Origin: Fistulifera solaris
Lineage: Eukaryota
Assembly: GCA_030295235.1 (NCBI GenBank)
Contig: AP026162.1
Span: 682,001-746,000, forward strand
Direction of reading: 5' to 3'
DNA: 64,000 bases
Shown piece by piece: positions 8,850-47,565 of the stretch. Made by a program: the position numbers and the translations under genes. Position 1 is the first letter of the stretch; every line of letters begins with the position of its first letter. The notes beneath the pieces were generated by a model. That model ran no database searches. It worked only from the letters and a program-made list of their open reading frames with translations, and was not told where the DNA came from.

Positions 8850-9950
8850 CATTGTCGTTGTTCTGGACCAGTTTTTTCGATCCTACCGAAATGCGGTGCG
8901 CTTTCCGGAAAATTCCAGAAATTGTGTTTGGATACTAACGGAATGCTGTGCGCTTTCAAGAAATTCTGGTATTTGTGTTTTAGATCATAACCAAAGAAAA
9001 TGCAAATCCAGAAAGTTCGGAAGATCCTACCGAAATGCTGTACACGCTCCAGAAATTTTGCAATCAGTGTTTTAGATCATAACGAAAGAAAATGCAAATT
9101 CCAGAAAATCTGGAAAGGATAAAGGATATTTCCGAACATACAGAAATTCTGTGGTGCTCCAGAAATTCTGGATAAAAAATTGGTCGAATGAATCCTACCG
9201 AAATGCTGTGCAAATTATACAAACTCTGGACACGGTGTTGTGGATCACAACGAAATACAGTGCACGTTCCCGAAATTCTGGAAATTGTGTTTGGATCATA
9301 TCATAACCAAAGAAAGTGCACGTTCCAGAAATTCTGGAAATGAAATGCCTGATCATCTGATCATACAGAAATTCTGTTCTGTTCCAGAAAATCTGGACCA
9401 GTTTTTTCGAGCCTACCGAAATGCTGTTCGAATTCCAGAAATTCTGGAAATTGTGTTTTGGATCCTACCGGAATGCTTTGCACGTTCCAGAAATTCTGTA
9501 ATCTGTGTTTTAGATCATAACGAAACAAAATGCAAATTCCAGAAAATCTGGATTTCCGACCATACAGAAATTCTGTTATGCTCCAGAAAATCTGGACCAG
9601 TTTCTTCGATCCTACCGAAATGCTGTGCGCCTTCCAGAAATTTTGGAATTTATGTTTTGGATCCTACCGGAATGCTGTGCGCGTGAAATTGTGTTTGGAT
9701 CCTACCGGATAGCTTTGCGCGTTCCAGAAATTCTGGAGATTTTGTTATCTATCTATTTATAATCTATTTATAATAGCGCGCTGTGTCCGTGTGTGTGTCA
9801 CGTAACGTAACGCTGGTCCCGGGTGTCCGAATCACGGGTGTGACGCTATCCCCGGGGATCGAGCCCCCGCTTGCGGGAAGGGCGAGAACGAAAAAAGCCC
9901 TGCAGGGGCTAGACGCCGAAGGCGGCTAGTAAATCATAATGAAAGAAAGC
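8850..9950. repeat. Degenerate ~52-bp tandem satellite with higher-order structure
   Basis: Monomer similar to gatcctaccgaaatgctgtgcgcgttccagaaattctggaaattgtgtttt (atcctacc at 9609 and 9661). Three monomer variants recur, and the ctggaccagttt block recurs about 200 bp apart. Confidence 0.92.
9748..9929 (+). mobile_element. Non-autonomous Helitron (182 bp)
   Basis: Sits between A9747 and T9930. 5' TC, 3' CTAG, subterminal hairpins cgccgaaggcg and agccctgcaggggct, no TSD. Removing it restores a satellite monomer. Confidence 0.85.
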
Positions 9951-15157: not shown

Positions 15158-16154
15158 TCAAACAGTTTCCGATTGAATGGACGAATGCAAGTGATTTCTT
15201 TCTGCTTCGTCGCTGTCTGACAGTGCAACCTTCACGTCGTCTTGAATGCCCCCGAATAAAGGATCAAAACCATTCGCTGAACTTGTAATCGACGGTGCTT
15301 TCTTTTGTGATGATAAGCCGTCTTTACTTGGTATCGCCTCTACACCTTTGAACATTCCCTGCTGCATTTGCATCATTTGCATATGCTGCATCTGCATTAG
15401 CTGCATTTGTTGCCACATGACTGGGTTATGCTGCATTGCCATCTGGGGACCCAGCATCGGCATTGCAGGATATCCAAAGCTTCCCATTGTACCTTGCATG
15501 TTCGCGAAAGGCTGCGGATGTGATGGTGCAGCTTGTACTTTGGTTCCAGAGTTGTTCGACATTTGTGTACAAAGTTCGGGGTTGTCCCGAGAAAACAATT
15601 TATGATAATACGAACCCGTTTCTGGACCGCGTGAGATTCGGCTGAAGCCCCAGCGATTCAATTTTCTTGTAAAAGAGGCAAATCGACTCCCTCTAAAGTA
15701 CAATGGAAGGATTTCCGACTCAAAAATTTTCTTTTTATGAATCATGAATGCATTTCCGTGATCGCACCAAGAAACGACATGTGAATGAGACCCATCCGAC
15801 AGTATATCCATGAGCTGGTTTGTGGCAAAGTATCAGGAAGACGAGTGTTTGTAAAAGATGTAAGGCTTTCGATCTGGTAAACGTTATAAAACGGTGTGGT
15901 GAAAGAGTCGGAGGTCTTTCGATCAGCTACGAGCTATGACCGTCGGAAGAAGTGGCTGTCACAAATGATTCTCGGAGAGGAAATTGTACAAACAATGACA
16001 ATGTAAATGCATCACTTACTTTCTGCGGAAAAGTGCGCGTAGAGTCATCCGCGAAACCTTTCGTTTCGTTATATTGATCCATCGTCATTGCAAAAGCAGC
16101 ATATTCATTCTCTCCTCTGCCGACAAACCCAACGGAACTTGCTTCGTCTGCCAT
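15158..16154 (-). CDS. Heat shock transcription factor
   Basis: TFPQK|LMDIL...VVSWCDHGNAFMI...FASFTRKLNRWGF...YYHKLFSR. Intron 15815-16019. Q/M-rich region. Confidence 0.92.
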
Positions 16155-39058: not shown

Positions 39059-39540
39059 CTTTTGCTTATCGGCCGTCGCTTCGTCCCCCTATTTCACGTC
39101 GAACAAAATACTCTTGGGATGAGGTAACACTCACGATTGTTTCAAAGCTATAGACACCCTCGGCTTTTCATAGTATATTGTTCATTTGTTATTCATTTCG
39201 TCCCCGTCATCATCGATACATTACTGCATAATAGTGATTTAGCTTATCTTCGCAATCGCAATAATCCGCCGCTCTCATCTCTCATTCATATCTTGGAAAA
39301 TTGATCACGTCGTAGCACCACTAAAATGTACGTAAAACTACACCTTAGCCAATAGATGCTTCTCGTCCACGTTTTGATATTAAATTAGCTTAGTACCAGT
39401 CTCATTTGAACGGTCCTTGACGTAAGAGCATGCGATAGGTGCAAGTTTTGTGCGCCACCCATTCTTTTTTCGTTCGTTGGCCTCTTGGGTCTTGGTGTCA
39501 TTCATACTCTCCAGGTCTTCCAACTTCTTATCATTGCATC

Positions 39541-40121
39541 ATGTCAGGACTAGGAAGACGGACCCATTATCGAAAGCACTTAACTGACAAGGTGCTGAAT
39601 GATTTCCCAGTTCCGGCGGAAGATGAAAGCATAGCCAAGGTCGTCGCCACGCGTGGAGGCAACCAGTTCGACATTATTCTTCCCGGTGGATCGGAGGAGC
39701 AACAATTAGCTATTCTGCCAACGAAATTCAGAAAATTAGTGTGGCTGAAACGGAATGATTTTGTCATCGTACAGAGAGCAAAAGATGATTTGACGGGCGA
39801 TACGGAAGACAATCAAGATGCTGTCAAGAATGTGGAAACGGGAAGCATCCGTTTCATGATTAGTCATATTCTATACAAAGATCAAGTCAAACATTTGAAA
39901 TCGGAAGGATATTGGCCGGAAGATGACCCTAGATTCAACGATGCTTCTGCTGATCATGAAGCGGGACAACCCGTCGCTGCTGCCGAGGATGGTATCGTTT
40001 ACGAAGCCGAGATTGATTCCAGCGATGAAGACGTAGATAGAGATCTTTTGTGAACACAAACCGCATCGCAACATTGGCTGTTGACGATTCTTCTTCCGAG
40101 AGTGATGAGGACGGTGACTAA
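39541..40121 (+). CDS. EIF1AD: EIF1AD (eIF1A-like OB-fold RNA-binding protein)
   Basis: IAKVVATRGGNQF...LPTKFRKLVWLKRNDFVIV...GYWP. LFVNTNR tail is recovered by adding one T near 40047. Confidence 0.88.
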
Positions 40122-40425: not shown

Positions 40426-40926
40426 CATGAGTAAATGGTAAACCCTGGGGTGAAGAGAAGTCCGTCTTCGCCCGTATCCTTTTGACTTTTGACCCCTGTT
40501 TTTCGACGTTTGACCGTCGTCAGACCCTTTCGCGCTGCTCAAAAAAATTGCAGCGAAACTTCACCGTGTAACATCACGGCATAATGCCGATCTTAGTTTC
40601 TTTACCATAATATGAAAGTATGATCCGACTCGGCGCCAACATTAAAAAATGATCTTTTATTATTTATTAAATCGTTTCCGTTTTCGGGGCCTAGTCGGAT
40701 CATAATTTGAAAAACGGTGTTGACATGCAAAGTTCGATCATTTTGTCGTGTTAATTACACGGTGAAAATTTTTCACAGGTCGAATTTCGACGAATGTCGC
40801 ACCTGACAAAATTCAAAATGGGGGACACCAATGCTGACATGCGCACAAGTCACAAGCGCGGTGTATCACGTAAAAAGCGGTCGAGAACAGACACATCTTC
40901 ACCCCAAGGTTTACCATTTACTCATG
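40426..40926. mobile_element. P-element-like MITE (501 bp)
   Basis: About 31-bp TIR CATGAGTAAATGGTAAACCYTGGGGTGAAGA with 1 mismatch. 7-bp TSD CCGGAAC at 40419-40425 and 40927-40933. Confidence 0.9.
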
Positions 40927-41167
40927 CCGGAACTATTGACTATTAGATGCCTGCACAATCGTGATTGAATCGGAGTCTTAGTCTTGCGTCACCTAGAGAT
41001 CTTGAGAAGGTTCCAGAAACTCTGAAACCAGTGTTTTGGGGACAAACCGAAATTTTGTGTACACTCCGGAAAATCAGAAATCACTCTTTTCGGCGAGGCA
41101 GATGATGCGATGAATGCATGATCGACGATGCGATGAATGTAATGGGCAATCACACAAGGCCATGAAT

Positions 41168-41305
41168 ATTTTCTGGACACGTGAAAATATCACGTCCCCA
41201 CATTTTCTGGACACGTGAAATGCCACACTCCCACATTTTCTGGACAAGTGAAAATATCACGTCCCACATTTTCTGGAAAAGTGAAAGTATCACGTCCCCA
41301 CATTT
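41168..41305. repeat. 33-34 bp tandem repeat, left half
   Basis: About 4 units of cccacattttctggacacgtgaaaatatcacgt (ttctgg at 41171, 41205, 41238, 41271). Confidence 0.9.
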
Positions 41306-44300
41306 GTTGCTGCAAGTACTGAAACTTCCGGGTACCCCAGTACAATTGTTCATTCCCGACTTCGACGAGAATTCCTTTTGTGCTCTCCCCCACTAATTCG
41401 ACCCTCGCGGTTTCATTGGTGAAGCCCATTTTGATATTCATTTTGATTTCAACAAAGTGATGAGTCGGTCAAACGCCGATCCCCATGGTTCGTCCAGGGG
41501 ATTCAGCGAGCCCTGACCCGCCCGGCTTGCAGGAGGCAACGTCCGGTACTCGGATCCCTAATCAAGGTACAGCAGCTGCGCTTTGTACTTAGGACGCGCT
41601 CAGTCTTGAGACACCCCTACTGTGTCGCTATAGGTACAAACACCCCCACTGTTGACATCACAGAAGTCTCGTCGCCCAGGCCTCGACCTCCGGGCCCTTG
41701 TTGCAATTGTTCCAAAACCGCAACATGCAAAAACCGACGCTGCTTTTGTCGTAAAAACAATCTTCGATGCACCAATTGTTTTTGTCGTGCCTGCACCAAC
41801 AAAAACACAGCTAATCCTTCCGATGATTCCACACCCAATCCACCGGATAGCTTTCCACCCCACATCGAACAAATTCCAGAAGCCCACCGCACTGCACTTA
41901 CCTTTCAGGGTGCGAGCAGAGGCTTCTGAATCATCCAATCACCAATTCACGACGCCAAATTCGTCACCGGACGCAGTGAATATCGCCTCCTACTCCGGAT
42001 GTCGATGACTCCCTATTTGTTCCTCCTGTTCGCGCCTCGAACAGCACAAGCACTCACAACCGATGGCCCCTCCTTTCGACGACCTCGTGCAAGAAATTGC
42101 CAACGATCTCACAAGAGTCCTTGGCCCTCCGCTTCTCACACAGGTTGATGGTGCTGATCCGATTGGTTTTATTGCCAGTGAAGCCCATTTGCGTTTGAAA
42201 CAAGTCTTTGGAGACTGGATTCACGACAACGATGGGACTCAACTCCATGGCAGTCTTTCAGCTGAGGAGGATTACGAGTGGCAAAAACGCTATGAGGATC
42301 TGTGTTCTTCTTCCCCTAATTATTACATGTTGCCCCTCGGTGGAGACACGGGTATTAAATTCCTCAATCAACTTGTTGCGGAATTTCAGGCAGTCCGGCT
42401 CCATCGCACCGCTTAATTTTGAACGTGTGATTGTCTTCGTGCAGGTGGTGCTTGCAAGCAAGCGTGATATCTCCGACGCCAAAGCAATCCGACCGTATTA
42501 ATGATCGTCTTGAGCTCTGGGCTGGGAAGCAGTATCAATTGCTAGTTGATGATACTCTTCTCGAGCGTAAATTCGAATTCGTGGACCGGTCGTTCGCTCA
42601 GATCTGGAAATTGCAGAGCGTTTCAGAAACACAGTTGAGTTTGGACGAATCAAAAGGCGATGCAACAGCTAATGGAATCAACGCAAGAAGGTTCTTCTGT
42701 TTTAGACCCAGAATCAATTGATTTGAAATCAGGCAAACCTGTCCGTGATGTTCTTGACGCAAAGCATCCTCCACAACGAGTTCCCGACTTGGAAAACGAT
42801 GAAGACCATTCTGCGTTCGAAGTACGATACTACTCCCGATGCGGTCCCTCTCAGAATGACAGCACAAAGTATTGAAGAGGCTGCTCGTAATATCAATGGT
42901 AGTGGAGGTCCTAGCGGCATTGATGCCAAAATGCTTCAGAACTGGCTTATCTGCTTTGGTGATGCATCATTTGCACTCACGTCAAGAGTTAGCTGCCTGG
43001 ACCGAGTGGTTAACAAATGGCGACCCACCGTACGCATCAATTCGAGCTCTAATGCATTGCAGACTCGTAGCATTAGACAAGAAACCTGGTGTTCGCCCTA
43101 TTGCAATTGGTGATATCTTCCGACGCCTAATAGATCAAGCGGTTTTGAAAGCAACTGGTTATCACAGCACGGCTGAGGCTTCCAACTTCAACCTTTCTGT
43201 TGGTTTGCAAGCTGGTATTGAGGGGGCACTTCATGCCGTTCAAAAACGCTTACTTGATTCTTCGATTATTTAGGCTTCTGATAGTTCAAGCTTGATACTT
43301 GACTTCTGATTCTTCGTCGGTACTTTCACTACCGTACCCGGGTGTTGGCTATGTTCCGCCCTCTTTATCTCCTTCGGATTCTGACAACAGTTCCACGACA
43401 TCAATGCTAGATTCTCAGACCGACCACGAGGGCGGTGGTATTGGTGGATGCCCGTAACGCTTTCAACGAACTCAATCGCCTGGTTATGCTGTGGACTGTG
43501 CGGCATCTGTATCCAGCAGGGGCCCGACTTATCTTTCATTCTTATCGGCACACGCCTATTCTTTTTTCTCTGAAGAGGTGAGGGAAAACCGTGCATCAAA
43601 CTTCACAGCCGCTGAGGGAATTACGCAAGGAGATCCCATGAGTATGATTATATACGGTCTTACCCTGGTTCCCTTGGCAAAACGCATTCGTGAAGCCACT
43701 AAGGATGTTGTGCAGCCATGGTATGCGGATGACGTAGCTTTAGCGGGTCCTGCAAGTCAAATAGATATCGCGATGAAGCTGCTTATTAAGTATGGCCCTG
43801 ACCGTGGTTACTATCCCGAACCCGAGAAAAGCCAGCTTGTTTGCATTGACCCTGAGTCCCGTTTGGCTTGTAGTCGGTTGCTAGCTGAATACAAGTTTTC
43901 GTGTGTGCCGTCGCCAGATACCTTGGAGGATTTATTGGGGATCGGAGCTATCTTGGGGAGTGGCTGTGTCCCAAAATTGAAGCGTGGATATCCAAAGTTG
44001 AAGCGCTTTCCATGGTTGCTCGGACTGAACCACAAGCAGCGTATGCGGCCTTCACAATCTCGCTACAAAATGAATGGGCTTACATTCAGCGCGTAGTTCC
44101 AGGCTGTGAAGAGTTTCTCAAACCGCTGGAGGTTGCCTTACGCACTTCTTTACTTCCAGCGATTCTTGGGGAGGCGGAGTCCGACTGTCGGTGAACTTCG
44201 AGAAATTACCACTCTAGCAACTAAGGCAGCTGGAATCGCCATTTCACGACCCTAGTGTGACAGCTCCGGTTAACTATGAAATTTCGGTAATGGTGACTAA

Positions 44301-45382
44301 GCCCCTTACGGATAGTCTAATGCAGAATTGAACTTGATGTGGCGGCTTATCATAAGCATGCCAAAGCAACCCGTACACGCTGCTAAGGGCGCCCGTATAG
44401 ACAGAGATTTGAAGACCCTGCAGCGCATCTGTAAAACAGAACGCCCTGTAGAAGTCAGAGCGTCTCGAAAGGGCTAAGGAGACCGGGAATTGGTTGACTG
44501 TGCATCCGATCGCATCAACGGTACCACCTTGTCATGTGACGAATTTCGTGACAGCATCCGAATCCGCTTAGGCCTGCCCTTACTTGGACTAAACGAAACC
44601 TGTGATGGATGCGGTGACAAATTCTCGTTCTTGCATTCACAAGATTGTCCACATGGTGGACTAGTCTCTATCCGACATGATGACATGAAGAAGGAATTTC
44701 TATTTATTTGTCAGCAGGCTATGCCCGACGAAACATTCGCTGACGAACCTCCCATCTACCCTGGTCGCGGACGCACAGTTGAGACAATGCATGATATTGA
44801 TGAAACTAGAGGTGATATCTCCGTGTATGAATTTTGGAAAAGACGTCGTCTCACCATGTTTGATGTATCTATCGTTGACACTGAGGCTGATTCCTATGTT
44901 ACCACTGACCCTAAAATTCTTTTTAGCAAGACGAAAAGAGAAATTCGACAAACATGGCCCCAAATGTGAAGCCCAACGTATTGATTTCACCCCGTTGGTC
45001 TTTTCCGGCAGATGGATTGATTGGAAAGCAGGCTAATCTTGCGATCAAAAAGCTTGCTGGGAAATTAGCACTAAAATGGGACAAACAGTATTCTGTTGTA
45101 TGTGGCTATGTCCGCTCTCGATTGAGCATTTCCTTAGTCCGTTCCGTTTCTATGCTGTTGCGCAGCCCGCGTAGTGGTTTGCCCCTTAGCTCTCATCCGC
45201 TTTGGTTAGATGGTGCTGGTCTGTCTATCTACTAACCTTATCCTCAATGGTGCTCCTTCGCGATCTACCGTTTCCCTTCTGAGCGTACCAGATACGTCGT
45301 ACAACTGATCCTCGTGTTAGACAAGCATAGTAGAGAAAGTAATACTATAAAGGACAAGTTTCAAAAAAAAAAAAAAAAAAAA
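41306..45382 (+). mobile_element. CRE-type non-LTR retrotransposon (CXC - RT - CCHC - RLE), disrupted reading frame
   Basis: GSGGPSG, RLVALDKKPGVRPIAIGDIFRRL, VDARNAFNE, GITQGDP, WYADD; CDGC...H...C, RHD, RGDISV...FDVSI (RLE). A20 tail at 45363-45382. Probable TSD ACATTT. Confidence 0.92.
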
Positions 45383-45540
45383 CATTTTCTGGATAAGTAA
45401 GGTTAGTGAAATGCCATATTCCCACATTTTCTGGGGACGGGAAATTCCACGTTCCCACATTTCTGGGCAAGTGAATTTACCACGCCCCCTCATTTTGGAC
45501 ACGTGAATTTACCACCCTCCCACATTTTCTGGACACGTGA
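45383..45540. repeat. 33-bp tandem repeat, right half
   Basis: The same cccacattttctggacacgtgaa units resume immediately after the poly(A). Confidence 0.88.
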
Positions 45541-45720
45541 GTTCGTGCGTGCATGTGAACGACCCGCCTATTTTTAGAAAGCAATCTCGTCCGCGTTGAA
45601 TTCCTTTTGCCCTACAACCTTCATCGACTTGCAAAAGGCAGTCGTGTTGCTGGTGATATTCATGATTTAACATTACTTCTTGCTTCTTGATGGTAGACGG
45701 TAACGGAAATTAGAATCAAT

Positions 45721-47565
45721 ATGGGAAAAGAAGAGAAAGAGTTGTATAGTAATAATTCTCAGAAACGCCGTGATGAGGATGACGACCATAAGGATCGAAA
45801 AAAGCGACGAAAGTCGCGCGCTCGTGATGATAGTTCGGAGGAAGAAAGAAAGCCACGATCCAAGCATAAAAAGAAGAGATCACGAGAAGAAAGAAAAAAG
45901 TCGAAAATCAAAGAAACGGAAAAAGGATTATAGCTCTTCCAGCGATTCATCTTCTGATAGCTCTGATGAATCATCATCAAGTGGTAGAGGCAAGAGTGCA
46001 CGACCGAAAAAGGTTGTGAACGATCGACTTTTGGCCAAATTGCAAGCCAGGGGAGAGACGTTGGAAGAGAGAAATGCACGCCGTGCGGAAAAGCGAGCGG
46101 CTTTGATCAGTCAAAAATTTGGGTACACCGTAGACAACAATCCGTTCAACGATCCTAATCTGCACGAAAAGTTTACATGGAGAAAAAGGAAGCACACAAT
46201 GATAGTGAACAGGCTCCGAAAAAGAAAAGACGACACGTTTTTTGAGATCGAAAAAGTCAGGCAGCGAAGAACTGAGCGAGATCTGCAGCGAGAGGAAATG
46301 GAACGAATTAGAGCGGAAGAGAGCAGAATGAGAGAACTTGAGAACTACGACGAGTGGGCAAAGAAGGAGGAAGAGTTTCATTTACAGCAGCAGCGACAGC
46401 GTTCTGCTATCAGACTTGTTGAAGGCCGTGAAAAACCTGTAGATGTGCTGGCGAAAAACCTCCTCTTGTTCGGTTTATCTGACGAAGACAAAAGAATCGC
46501 GCCTCTATCAAATATCAGGAAAAGTATAATGCAATGGAGGCTATGAAAACTTTGGAAGTAGAACTTGAAGAACCATACGCGCTGCTAAAAATGATGAAGC
46601 TTGACGAACTCGAGGAGCTTCGCTTGGATATAGAGTCCTTTCGACAGCTAGAGCGACAAGCCCGTGTCTCAGATTTCGAGGTGTCTGGAAGCGATTTCGT
46701 CCTCCGTTATTGGGACGCACTTGCCATCGTAGTAGATGACGAAATAAAACTGCTGAAAAGTGGCGGTGAAAATGGAAGTCATGCGAAAATGGTAGGAGAT
46801 GTCCAGAAAATCTTCTTTGGTCAGTCGAATGCAGATCTCAAGAAGATGAAGACCGAGGTCGAGAACAGACTTAGTTCGAGTGTAAAGGCTGGCTCTGACC
46901 GTAATTATTGGCTTTCGGTTGCAGAGCAGCTTGATGTATTTCTTTGCAAAAGCTTTTTATCGGAAGAGCACTCTAAGATGCTGGTGCGACAGCTTGAGCG
47001 ACTGGAAAAGCGTCGAGAAGAACTTGCTCGAGTTTGCGATACTGGAGCCAGTGGAGGAGAAGAACAGCCTGAAGAAAGAGAAATTGTGGTGGCCGAAGAG
47101 TCTTTAGATCCATTTCAATTTCCACACGGCGATCTTGAGGAGGAACTCGGTCTTTCGGATGAATTTGATTTAGCGGGCAAATCTTATAGCTGGCAGGACA
47201 AGTATCGTCCTCGTAAGCCTCGCTACTTTAACCGAGTCAAAACCGGTTATGATTGGAATAAGTATAACCAGACTCACTACGATAAAGACAATCCGCCTCC
47301 AAAGATCGTTCAAGGCTACAAGTTCAATATCTTTTATACTGATCTAATCGACCCGACAAAGACTCCGACATTCACATTGGAACCTGCTGATTCGAAGGAG
47401 TTTTGCATAATTCGGTTCAAGGCAGGCGCTCCATATGAGGATATTGCTTTCAAAATCATCAACAGAGAGTGGAACAAGTCCCGAAAAAGAGGGTTTAAGT
47501 CGTCGTTCGAGCGGGGAGTACTATCCTTGTATTTCAACTTCACCACGCACTGGTATAGAAGATAA
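45721..47565 (+). CDS. CACTIN: Cactin (spliceosomal)
   Basis: GYTVDNNPFNDPNL, EEEFHLQQ...IRLVEGREKPVD, C-terminal KYRPRKPRYFNRVKTGYDWNKYNQTHYD...LYFNF...YRR. Frameshifts present. Confidence 0.95.

Follow-up and report, generated by a model that had tools for sequence, protein, structure and literature searches.

Introduction

Long interspersed nuclear elements (LINEs) with a restriction-like endonuclease (RLE), such as R2, are a model for site-specific retrotransposition, and the DNA-binding heads at the N-terminus of their proteins decide the landing site. In the available parts of the published descriptions, this head consists of zinc fingers plus Myb in R2 and of zinc fingers in Utopia, each time at the N-terminus of the LINE protein. 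We analysed a stretch of 64,000 nucleotides from the diatom Fistulifera solaris (GenBank assembly GCA_030295235.1, contig AP026162.1, positions 682,001 to 746,000 of the forward strand; hereafter the window, whose first letter is position 1), which holds one copy of a decayed LINE. A preliminary description of this DNA had placed a CXC-type cysteine cluster at the N-terminus of the retrotransposon open reading frame (ORF) and had taken C2H2 fingers or Myb motifs to be the usual heads of RLE elements; on the latter point, R2 and Utopia bear it out.

CXC domains bind DNA, according to the accessible parts of three papers (PMC3447885, PMC4248295, PMC4974476). The consensus of the CXC superfamily is CX[C/H]X2-13CX4-7CXCX5-60CX2-4CX1-2CX2-15CXN, with a signature C-terminal Asn (Zheng et al. 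2012; PMC3447885), and tesmin-family proteins carry mostly two copies of the domain (PMC3447885). The fold of the superfamily is a Zn3Cys9 cluster, in which six terminal and three bridging Cys coordinate three zinc ions. Among LINEs, the HERO clade of RLE elements resembles the window element in its single ORF with reverse transcriptase (RT), CCHC zinc knuckle and RLE. Membership in this clade is defined by placement in an RT phylogeny with Repbase references. In the openly available text of one study, some HERO families target microsatellites and the clade includes many non-specific retrotransposons (PMC4640811); no statement on HERO N-terminal domains was found in the accessible papers.

Here we report that the window element is a dead LINE, assigned from its sequence to the R2 superfamily and inserted in a unit of a 33-bp satellite, and that a CXC-type cysteine cluster lies within it, ahead of the RT. 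On balance, we lean slightly towards the view that this cluster was the N-terminal DNA-binding head of the protein made by the intact progenitor.

Results

A CXC-type cysteine cluster within the element

The + strand at 41702-41800 encodes CNCSKTATCKNRRCFCRKNNLRCTNCFCRACTN, whose residues are spaced C-x-C-x5-C-x4-C-x-C-x6-C-x2-C-x-C-x2-C-x-N, exactly as the preliminary description had reported. One further Cys stands directly before it, at 41699, which brings the total to 10 Cys; the peptide encoded at 41696-41800 (+) is PCCNCSKTATCKNRRCFCRKNNLRCTNCFCRACTN. Over the 36 residues of 41699-41806 (the module and the next two residues, KN), the net charge is +9 and there is no acidic residue. The open frame that bears the cluster is the third-longest open stretch inside the element in the ORF listing. 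The CATTT duplication and the 20-A tail bracket 41306-45382, and the sequence next to the block on its upstream side is found again in a predicted protein (P0011, below); the CXC block therefore belongs to the element.

We then compared this motif with the rest of the window and with shuffled sequences. A strict MSL2-type regular expression gave a single match across the six frames of the window. The published superfamily consensus was found at 41702-41800 only, and in none of 100 mononucleotide shuffles. Similarly, the cluster packs 10 Cys into 34 residues, and 100 shuffles of the window never gave more than 9. Elsewhere in the translated window, at least 10 Cys per 34 residues are reached only at a TGC/CAG-type simple repeat (15360-15413, periods 15 and 24), which gives Cys-dense runs in two translated frames; these runs are a low-complexity artefact.

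Resemblance to described CXC domains

In a phmmer alignment with the MSL2 CXC domain (Pfam PF16682; PDB 2LUA, 4RKG and 4RKH), the nine Cys and the Asn are all aligned, without any gap from Cys-3 on. The two sequences share the spacing from Cys-3 to Asn (C-x4-C-x-C-x6-C-x2-C-x-C-x2-C-x-N), the residues TC.N.RC.C.K around the cysteines, and the presence of the domain in a single copy. They differ in the loop that joins Cys-2 to Cys-3, where the only gaps fall (5 residues in the window, 11 in MSL2), and at the position ahead of Cys-1, which is a Cys in the window and a K in MSL2. The context also differs, a retrotransposon here and a RING E3 ligase in MSL2. MSL2-CXC is the sole Pfam family matched by the CXC peptide, with 15.9 bits (E 0.014) in one scan and 16.6 bits (E 0.0089) in a second, and the match spans profile positions 17-51 of 55.

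The CRC of tesmin, TSO1 and LIN54 (PF03638, TCR) obeys the same superfamily consensus, including the invariant Asn, in the accessible text of PMC3447885. The window differs from it by having no TCR match and one CXC copy instead of mostly two; no second copy was found in the six frames of the window, so that the tandem pair of tesmin-type proteins is absent. A language-model search, whose recognition was low and which provides leads only, returned, among its neighbours, clusters of the "CRC domain" (0.87) and of MSL2-CXC (0.75) and one in which 13% of the members bear TCR (0.84).

Remains of the RT-RLE frame and class of the element

The first ATG of the RT frame is at 42063, and a partial hypothetical protein of F. 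solaris at NCBI (P0001, 99% identical) starts at the same Met. Frameshift-aware alignment gave 520/1003 identical residues against P0003 and 523/1011 against P0002, two of the full-length relatives presented below, and covers 42132-45232 at 52% identity. Against these two proteins, the frame has accumulated 19-20 frameshifts and one in-frame stop, i.e. about 6.5 lesions per kb. The window copy is thus not an intact single ORF and is a dead copy. Single extra bases account for 15/20 of the frameshifts against P0003 and 16/19 against P0002. The P0001 gene model skips the same frame breaks as the window copy; therefore, another copy behind P0001 probably shares these lesions, e.g. at a homeologous locus or as a copy made after decay.

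Despite this decay, the copy has kept its CCHC, RHD, D and D residues, which fall in columns that do not vary among 38 aligned relatives. The Pfam RVT_1 score, which is below the cut-off for the window fragment (Table 1), reaches up to 40.6 bits in relatives. A profile of the 38 relatives matched R2 proteins in PDB (9nl2, 1.1e-06; 9nl3; 9dou; range 1e-06 to 4e-05). Its stretch 858-909 matches residues 934-989 of R2Bm (8gh6), with a whole-sequence E of 4.6e-04 in which no single stretch passes alone. A phmmer search of PDB with P0003 gave no match. Because it combines an RT, a CCHC and an RHD...D...D region, and because the family profile matches R2 proteins in PDB, we assign the element, as judged from its sequence, to the R2 superfamily of LINEs with an RLE.

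About 110 codons separate the CXC cluster from the first block that can be aligned with relatives (42132), and the linker of a related family, described below, ranges from 36 to 216 aa. Between the CXC and the ATG at 42063 lie about 260 bp, and two or three lesions there would account for the separation of the CXC and RT frames. At about 6.5 lesions per kb along the element, decay alone would produce this number, which neither proves nor excludes an original fusion.

Upstream of the CXC, a predicted protein of 40 aa (P0011) repeats residues 17-48 of the CXC-bearing frame at 94% identity. At least one more copy of the upstream region therefore exists, and this region is poorly kept as a coding frame. 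In addition, a stretch of 23-26 nt in the 5' leader (41408-41431) recurs at the start of the RT ORF (42164-42190) as GGTTTYATTG..GTGAAGCCCATTT; the local alignment scores 32, and 200 shuffles reached 23 at most. We also considered 41330-41440 as a diverged duplicate of the ORF start; this was rejected, as the solid core is only 23-26 nt and the protein-level score was reached by 20 of 1000 shuffles.

N-terminal heads of related ORFs

The seven closest full-length relatives (P0002-P0008) measure 1099-1190 aa and are 46-58% identical over an aligned 41-46% of the query. P0009 is more distantly related, with 34% identity to P0001 over 44% of it, and its sequence opens with MPSCCRCSGKGRCIACACAKRGTPCTNC. 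With P0009 as the query, 732 proteins came up at an E of 1e-10 or better, and the family counts below come from the 120 listed. In 43 of these 120 (P0009 and proteins within P0016-P0127), the motif CC-x-C-x5-C-x2-C-x-C-x6-C-x2-C-x7-C-x-N lies in frame with the RT, and it begins within the first 14 residues in 39 of the 43. Ten others start inside the nine-Cys motif, and 67 are without it, many of them shorter models. The heads have a mean net charge of +6.3, and the linker behind them is rich in S/T/P, with a median length of 82 aa. The motif corresponds to no Pfam family, and no description of it was found in the searchable literature.

Alignment A1 (40 rows) combines the window peptide with 39 heads, the other four of the 43 being near-duplicates that were left out. 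Nine Cys, among them the CC doublet at the start, and the Asn are the same in all 40 rows. Like the window, the P0009-like module has the start CC-x-C-x5-C, the middle C-x-C-x6-C-x2-C and the end C-x-N; as in the window, it is basic, and a low-complexity linker and the shared conserved core come after it. In contrast to the window, the family has x2 instead of x4 between Cys-3 and Cys-4, lacks Cys-8 (C-L-P-x5-C for C-x-C-x2-C), and its RT core is only about 30% identical. The window peptide may therefore be a form between canonical CXC domains and the family heads, because it has both the leading Cys and Cys-8. With a hidden Markov model (HMM) of the 39 heads and composition correction off, the window peptide scored 41.3 bits, above all of 2000 shuffles of the same composition (mean 18.7, sd 3.7, maximum 34.5). 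Residue order, and not composition alone, therefore fits the family heads. Moreover, the P0009 head and linker map to 41699-41917, collinear with the RT matches further on.

Two of the 120 listed relatives (P0088 and P0095), both full-length RT-CCHC-RLE ORFs, carry a SAND domain (E ~1e-14, residues ~13-80) instead of the nine-Cys module. SAND is a DNA-binding domain. The presence of the nine-Cys module in 43 of the listed ORFs and of SAND at the same place in two suggests, at the sequence level, that the N-terminal position of this LINE group holds exchangeable modules, i.e. that heads are swapped. As a lead only, a language-model search pointed to a related look-alike cluster in which 42% of the members have PHD fingers.

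Insertion into the 33-bp satellite

The satellite that the element interrupts has a unit of about 33 bp (CATTTTCTGGACAAGTGAAAATATCACGTCCCA), which is cut after CATTT and resumes with CATTTTCTGG past the poly(A). The left and right satellite flanks match each other at 78-83%, and the first unit to the right of the LINE has 42 nt, with an insertion of 9 nt. The 20-A tail and the 5-bp CATTT duplication are hallmarks of target-primed reverse transcription, by which the LINE inserted into one unit of the satellite. The alternative that the satellite represents terminal repeats of the element itself was rejected, as the right-hand repeats lie beyond the poly(A) and a target-site duplication (TSD) is present. 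The precise insertion within the satellite unit is compatible with satellite targeting, and a single insertion cannot show targeting. The coordinates of the features are given in Table 1.

Table 1. Features of the inserted element and its satellite flanks (window positions)
Feature	Position	Strand	Basis
Left flank: ~33-bp satellite, 4.1 copies, broken by the insertion	41168..41305	.	TRF, units set in register
Left TSD copy, CATTT	41301..41305	+	sequence
Inserted LINE (non-LTR retrotransposon), 4,077 bp, with heavy decay	41306..45382	+	TSD and poly(A) bounds; relatives map collinearly
5' leader	41306..41446	+	sequence; holds the repeated stretch 41408-41431
Open frame, 160 codons stop to stop, no Met, holds the CXC	41447..41929	+	ORF listing, three-frame translation
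CXC-type cysteine cluster CC-x-C-x5-C-x4-C-x-C-x6-C-x2-C-x-C-x2-C-x-N (10 Cys + Asn)	41699..41800	+	motif, PDB, Pfam, shuffle tests
Spacer, CXC to first ATG of the RT ORF	41801..42062	+	three-frame translation
Remains of the RT-RLE reading frame	42063..45235	+	frameshift-aware alignment to P0003/P0002, tblastn, 99% identical P0001
RT core fragment	43458..44096	+	Pfam RVT_1, E 1.9e-05, 24.9 bits, below the 29.6-bit cut-off
CCHC zinc knuckle CDGCGDKFSFLHSQDC	44601..44648	+	aligned to family invariant C917, C920, C932 and nearly invariant H928
RLE region (RHDD ... GDIS ... FDVS), frame break near 44922	44670..44966	+	49% identical to residues 888-1036 of P0003
Poly(A) tail, 20 A	45363..45382	+	sequence
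Right flank: satellite resumes, first five bases (45383-45387) = second CATTT	45383..45540	.	TRF, sequence

Surroundings of the element

The insert and the satellite sit between a gene with an eIF-1A domain and a cactin gene. The former (39439-40053) looks intact (Pfam E 2e-11). The cactin gene (45704-47565) also looks intact (Cactin_mid, CactinC_cactus, E 1.7e-59) and is split over two overlapping frames near 46483-46546, which suggests an intron or a frame change. Upstream of the satellite, a 27-bp inverted repeat (96% identical) occupies 40900-40926 and 40426-40452. A second satellite at 9221-9684, with a period of 52-56 bp and about 6-9 copies, contains GTGCACGTTCCAGAAATTCTGGAA; it shows a marginal similarity (28 bp, E 0.01) to 41010-41037, just upstream of the 33-bp satellite. 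A search of Rfam at E up to 1 over 40900-45700 returned nothing, and thus no hepatitis delta virus (HDV)-like ribozyme at the 5' end. Neither the 27-nt CXC-coding stretch nor the RLE fragment had a match in bacterial and archaeal genome contigs, as expected of a prokaryote-only set.

Discussion

The reading that we slightly favour is that a dead R2-superfamily LINE lies in a unit of the 33-bp satellite and that its CXC cluster was the N-terminal DNA-binding head of the protein of an intact progenitor. In such a progenitor, a single LINE protein would start with the CXC head and continue through a low-complexity linker into the RT; the head would bind the target DNA and position the endonuclease, a role played in R2 by the C2H2 and Myb motifs. 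A DNA-binding head is proposed because CXC domains bind DNA, because the heads of R2 and Utopia are N-terminal, and because the module is basic. As far as the accessible descriptions go, the C2H2/Myb head of R2 and the zinc fingers of Utopia and NeSL occupy the same place as the window cluster, before the RT of an element of this kind, with the same proposed job; they differ from it in belonging to unrelated fold classes, CCHH fingers or helical Myb on the one side and a presumed multi-zinc cluster of Cys only on the other. The sequences themselves show the motif, its place within the insert, the type of element, the insertion site and, in a related family, the in-frame N-terminal Cys modules with their SAND alternative; zinc binding, DNA binding, in-frame fusion in this family and any satellite preference are inferred.

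A number of results weigh against this reading. Concerning the fold, both Pfam scores for MSL2-CXC are below the gathering cut-off of 26.7 bits, and the phmmer match to MSL2 in PDB (E 0.96, behind two FYVE chains) is not significant alone. No row for TCR/tesmin appeared in Pfam scans at E up to 1 or up to 10. AlphaFold2 modelling, which the preliminary description had proposed, was run twice and gave poor confidence, with a predicted local distance difference test (pLDDT) score of 56.9 from alignment A1 and 64.7 from the single sequence, zinc not being modelled. Searched against PDB with Foldseek, one of these low-confidence models had no match and the second matched only PARP1 zinc-finger chains, at E 7.3. 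The profile of A1 matches nothing in PDB, and a phmmer search of 1.84 billion representative sequences with the 160-aa ORF detected no CXC relative; its two matches were the 40-aa ORF, which comes from another copy of the upstream stretch, and a low-complexity repeat protein taken as spurious. With the default composition correction, the HMM of the 39 heads ranks the window ORF only fourth of 2026 ORF pieces (E 0.77, bias 30.7). The published CXC consensus is found in none of the 120 listed family N-termini, and none of the 39 family modules scanned matches MSL2-CXC in Pfam. Conversely, 9 of the 40 members of A1 scanned match Metallothionein (E of 0.019 or more), which means that Cys-rich sequences cross-match at this score level. 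Concerning the frame, the 160 codons that hold the CXC contain no Met, and their frame differs from that of the ATG at 42063, so that the CXC is out of frame with the RT in this copy. A stop at 41927-41929 closes the CXC frame, and another at 42006-42008 interrupts the RT frame ahead of this ATG. Compared with P0011, the window shows frame-changing indels upstream of the CXC, and the repeated stretch on both sides of the block hints that an old rearrangement or a template switch may have brought the block in. Finally, none of the seven closest full-length relatives has a Cys cluster; their N-termini are of low complexity and four of the seven start with Met.

As for the cluster itself, it is most likely a true CXC-superfamily module, which would bind three zinc ions through its nine Cys as in MSL2. 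The MSL2/tesmin-type assignment of the preliminary description is supported by the superfamily consensus and by the alignment of Cys and Asn with MSL2, but not on its tesmin side, with no TCR match, and the Pfam score stays below the cut-off. The placement of the CXC at the N-terminus of the retrotransposon ORF is likewise partly retained: the cluster is inside the insert and 5' of the RT frame, but it has no Met and is in another frame than the ATG at 42063. The proposal that CXC takes the place of C2H2 and Myb as the target module agrees with the nine-Cys and SAND heads of the distant relatives, but not with the closest relatives or with the frame of this copy.

Other explanations have to be considered. 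It is hardly conceivable that the motif arose by chance in a non-coding frame of a decayed element. The heavy decay of the copy and the missing start codon would be expected in that case, but the ordered nine Cys and Asn, the Cys density and the 2000 shuffles scored with the HMM effectively refute it, and the frame is open over 160 codons. A more serious possibility, which we nevertheless regard as doubtful, is that the block lies inside the element and was never fused to the RT, either as a separate upstream ORF or as a piece of a host CXC gene gained by template switching or 5' rearrangement and carried as a passenger in the leader. The missing ATG, the different frames with stops between them, the closest relatives without a Cys head, the repeat around the block and the indels of the P0011 copy would all fit such a history, as would the canonical consensus, which is found in the window and in no listed family head and which a host-derived CXC would be expected to show. 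However, the CC doublet and the start CC-x-C-x5-C are common to the window and to 43/43 family heads, whereas MSL2 has a K at the doublet. The order of head, spacer of about 110 codons and conserved core is the architecture of the family, and the number of breaks needed to separate the frames is what the decay rate of the element predicts. Moreover, no similar host protein occurs among the 1.84 billion representatives, a weak argument since Cys-rich bias lowers the scores.

It is also conceivable, although we consider it unlikely, that the cluster does form an N-terminal domain in the LINE protein, one that has no part in choosing the target and serves instead in RNA binding, as a tether to chromatin or proteins, or in protein stability; the satellite would then be an incidental site, e.g. 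a tolerated landing place. There is only one insertion to judge from, and the HERO clade offers many precedents of non-specific retrotransposons (PMC4640811, in its available text). The family heads match no DNA-binding Pfam family, some matching Metallothionein, and AlphaFold2 gave no confident fold. Against a non-targeting role stand the replacement of the head by the DNA-binding SAND in two listed relatives, the strongly basic module without acidic residues, and the precision of the insertion within the repeat unit, with its 5-bp TSD. The reading that we favour can be extended, in a form that we consider improbable: a Zn3Cys9 CXC would be the head with which a large, widespread and so far undescribed group of RLE LINEs ancestrally bound its target DNA. 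The canonical form of the diatom, with its LINE-specific leading Cys and its Cys-8, would then link the deviant nine-Cys heads of hundreds of ORFs to the CXC of MSL2 and tesmin, and in this family the head would make insertion site-specific, at CATTT^T of the 33-bp satellite.

In the searchable full-text literature, to which Repbase Reports and subscription journals do not belong, we came across no account of a LINE with a CXC head, which does not prove absence from print. If our reading is true, a CXC zinc cluster as head would widen the known targeting modules of LINEs beyond C2H2 fingers and Myb motifs, and the SAND and nine-Cys alternatives of the related ORFs would likewise widen this repertoire. 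For the CXC superfamily, a LINE head would be a new setting besides MSL2, tesmin/LIN54 and pre-SET. Should the head read the 33-bp satellite, the two would form a compact and testable pair of a DNA-binding module and a defined target.

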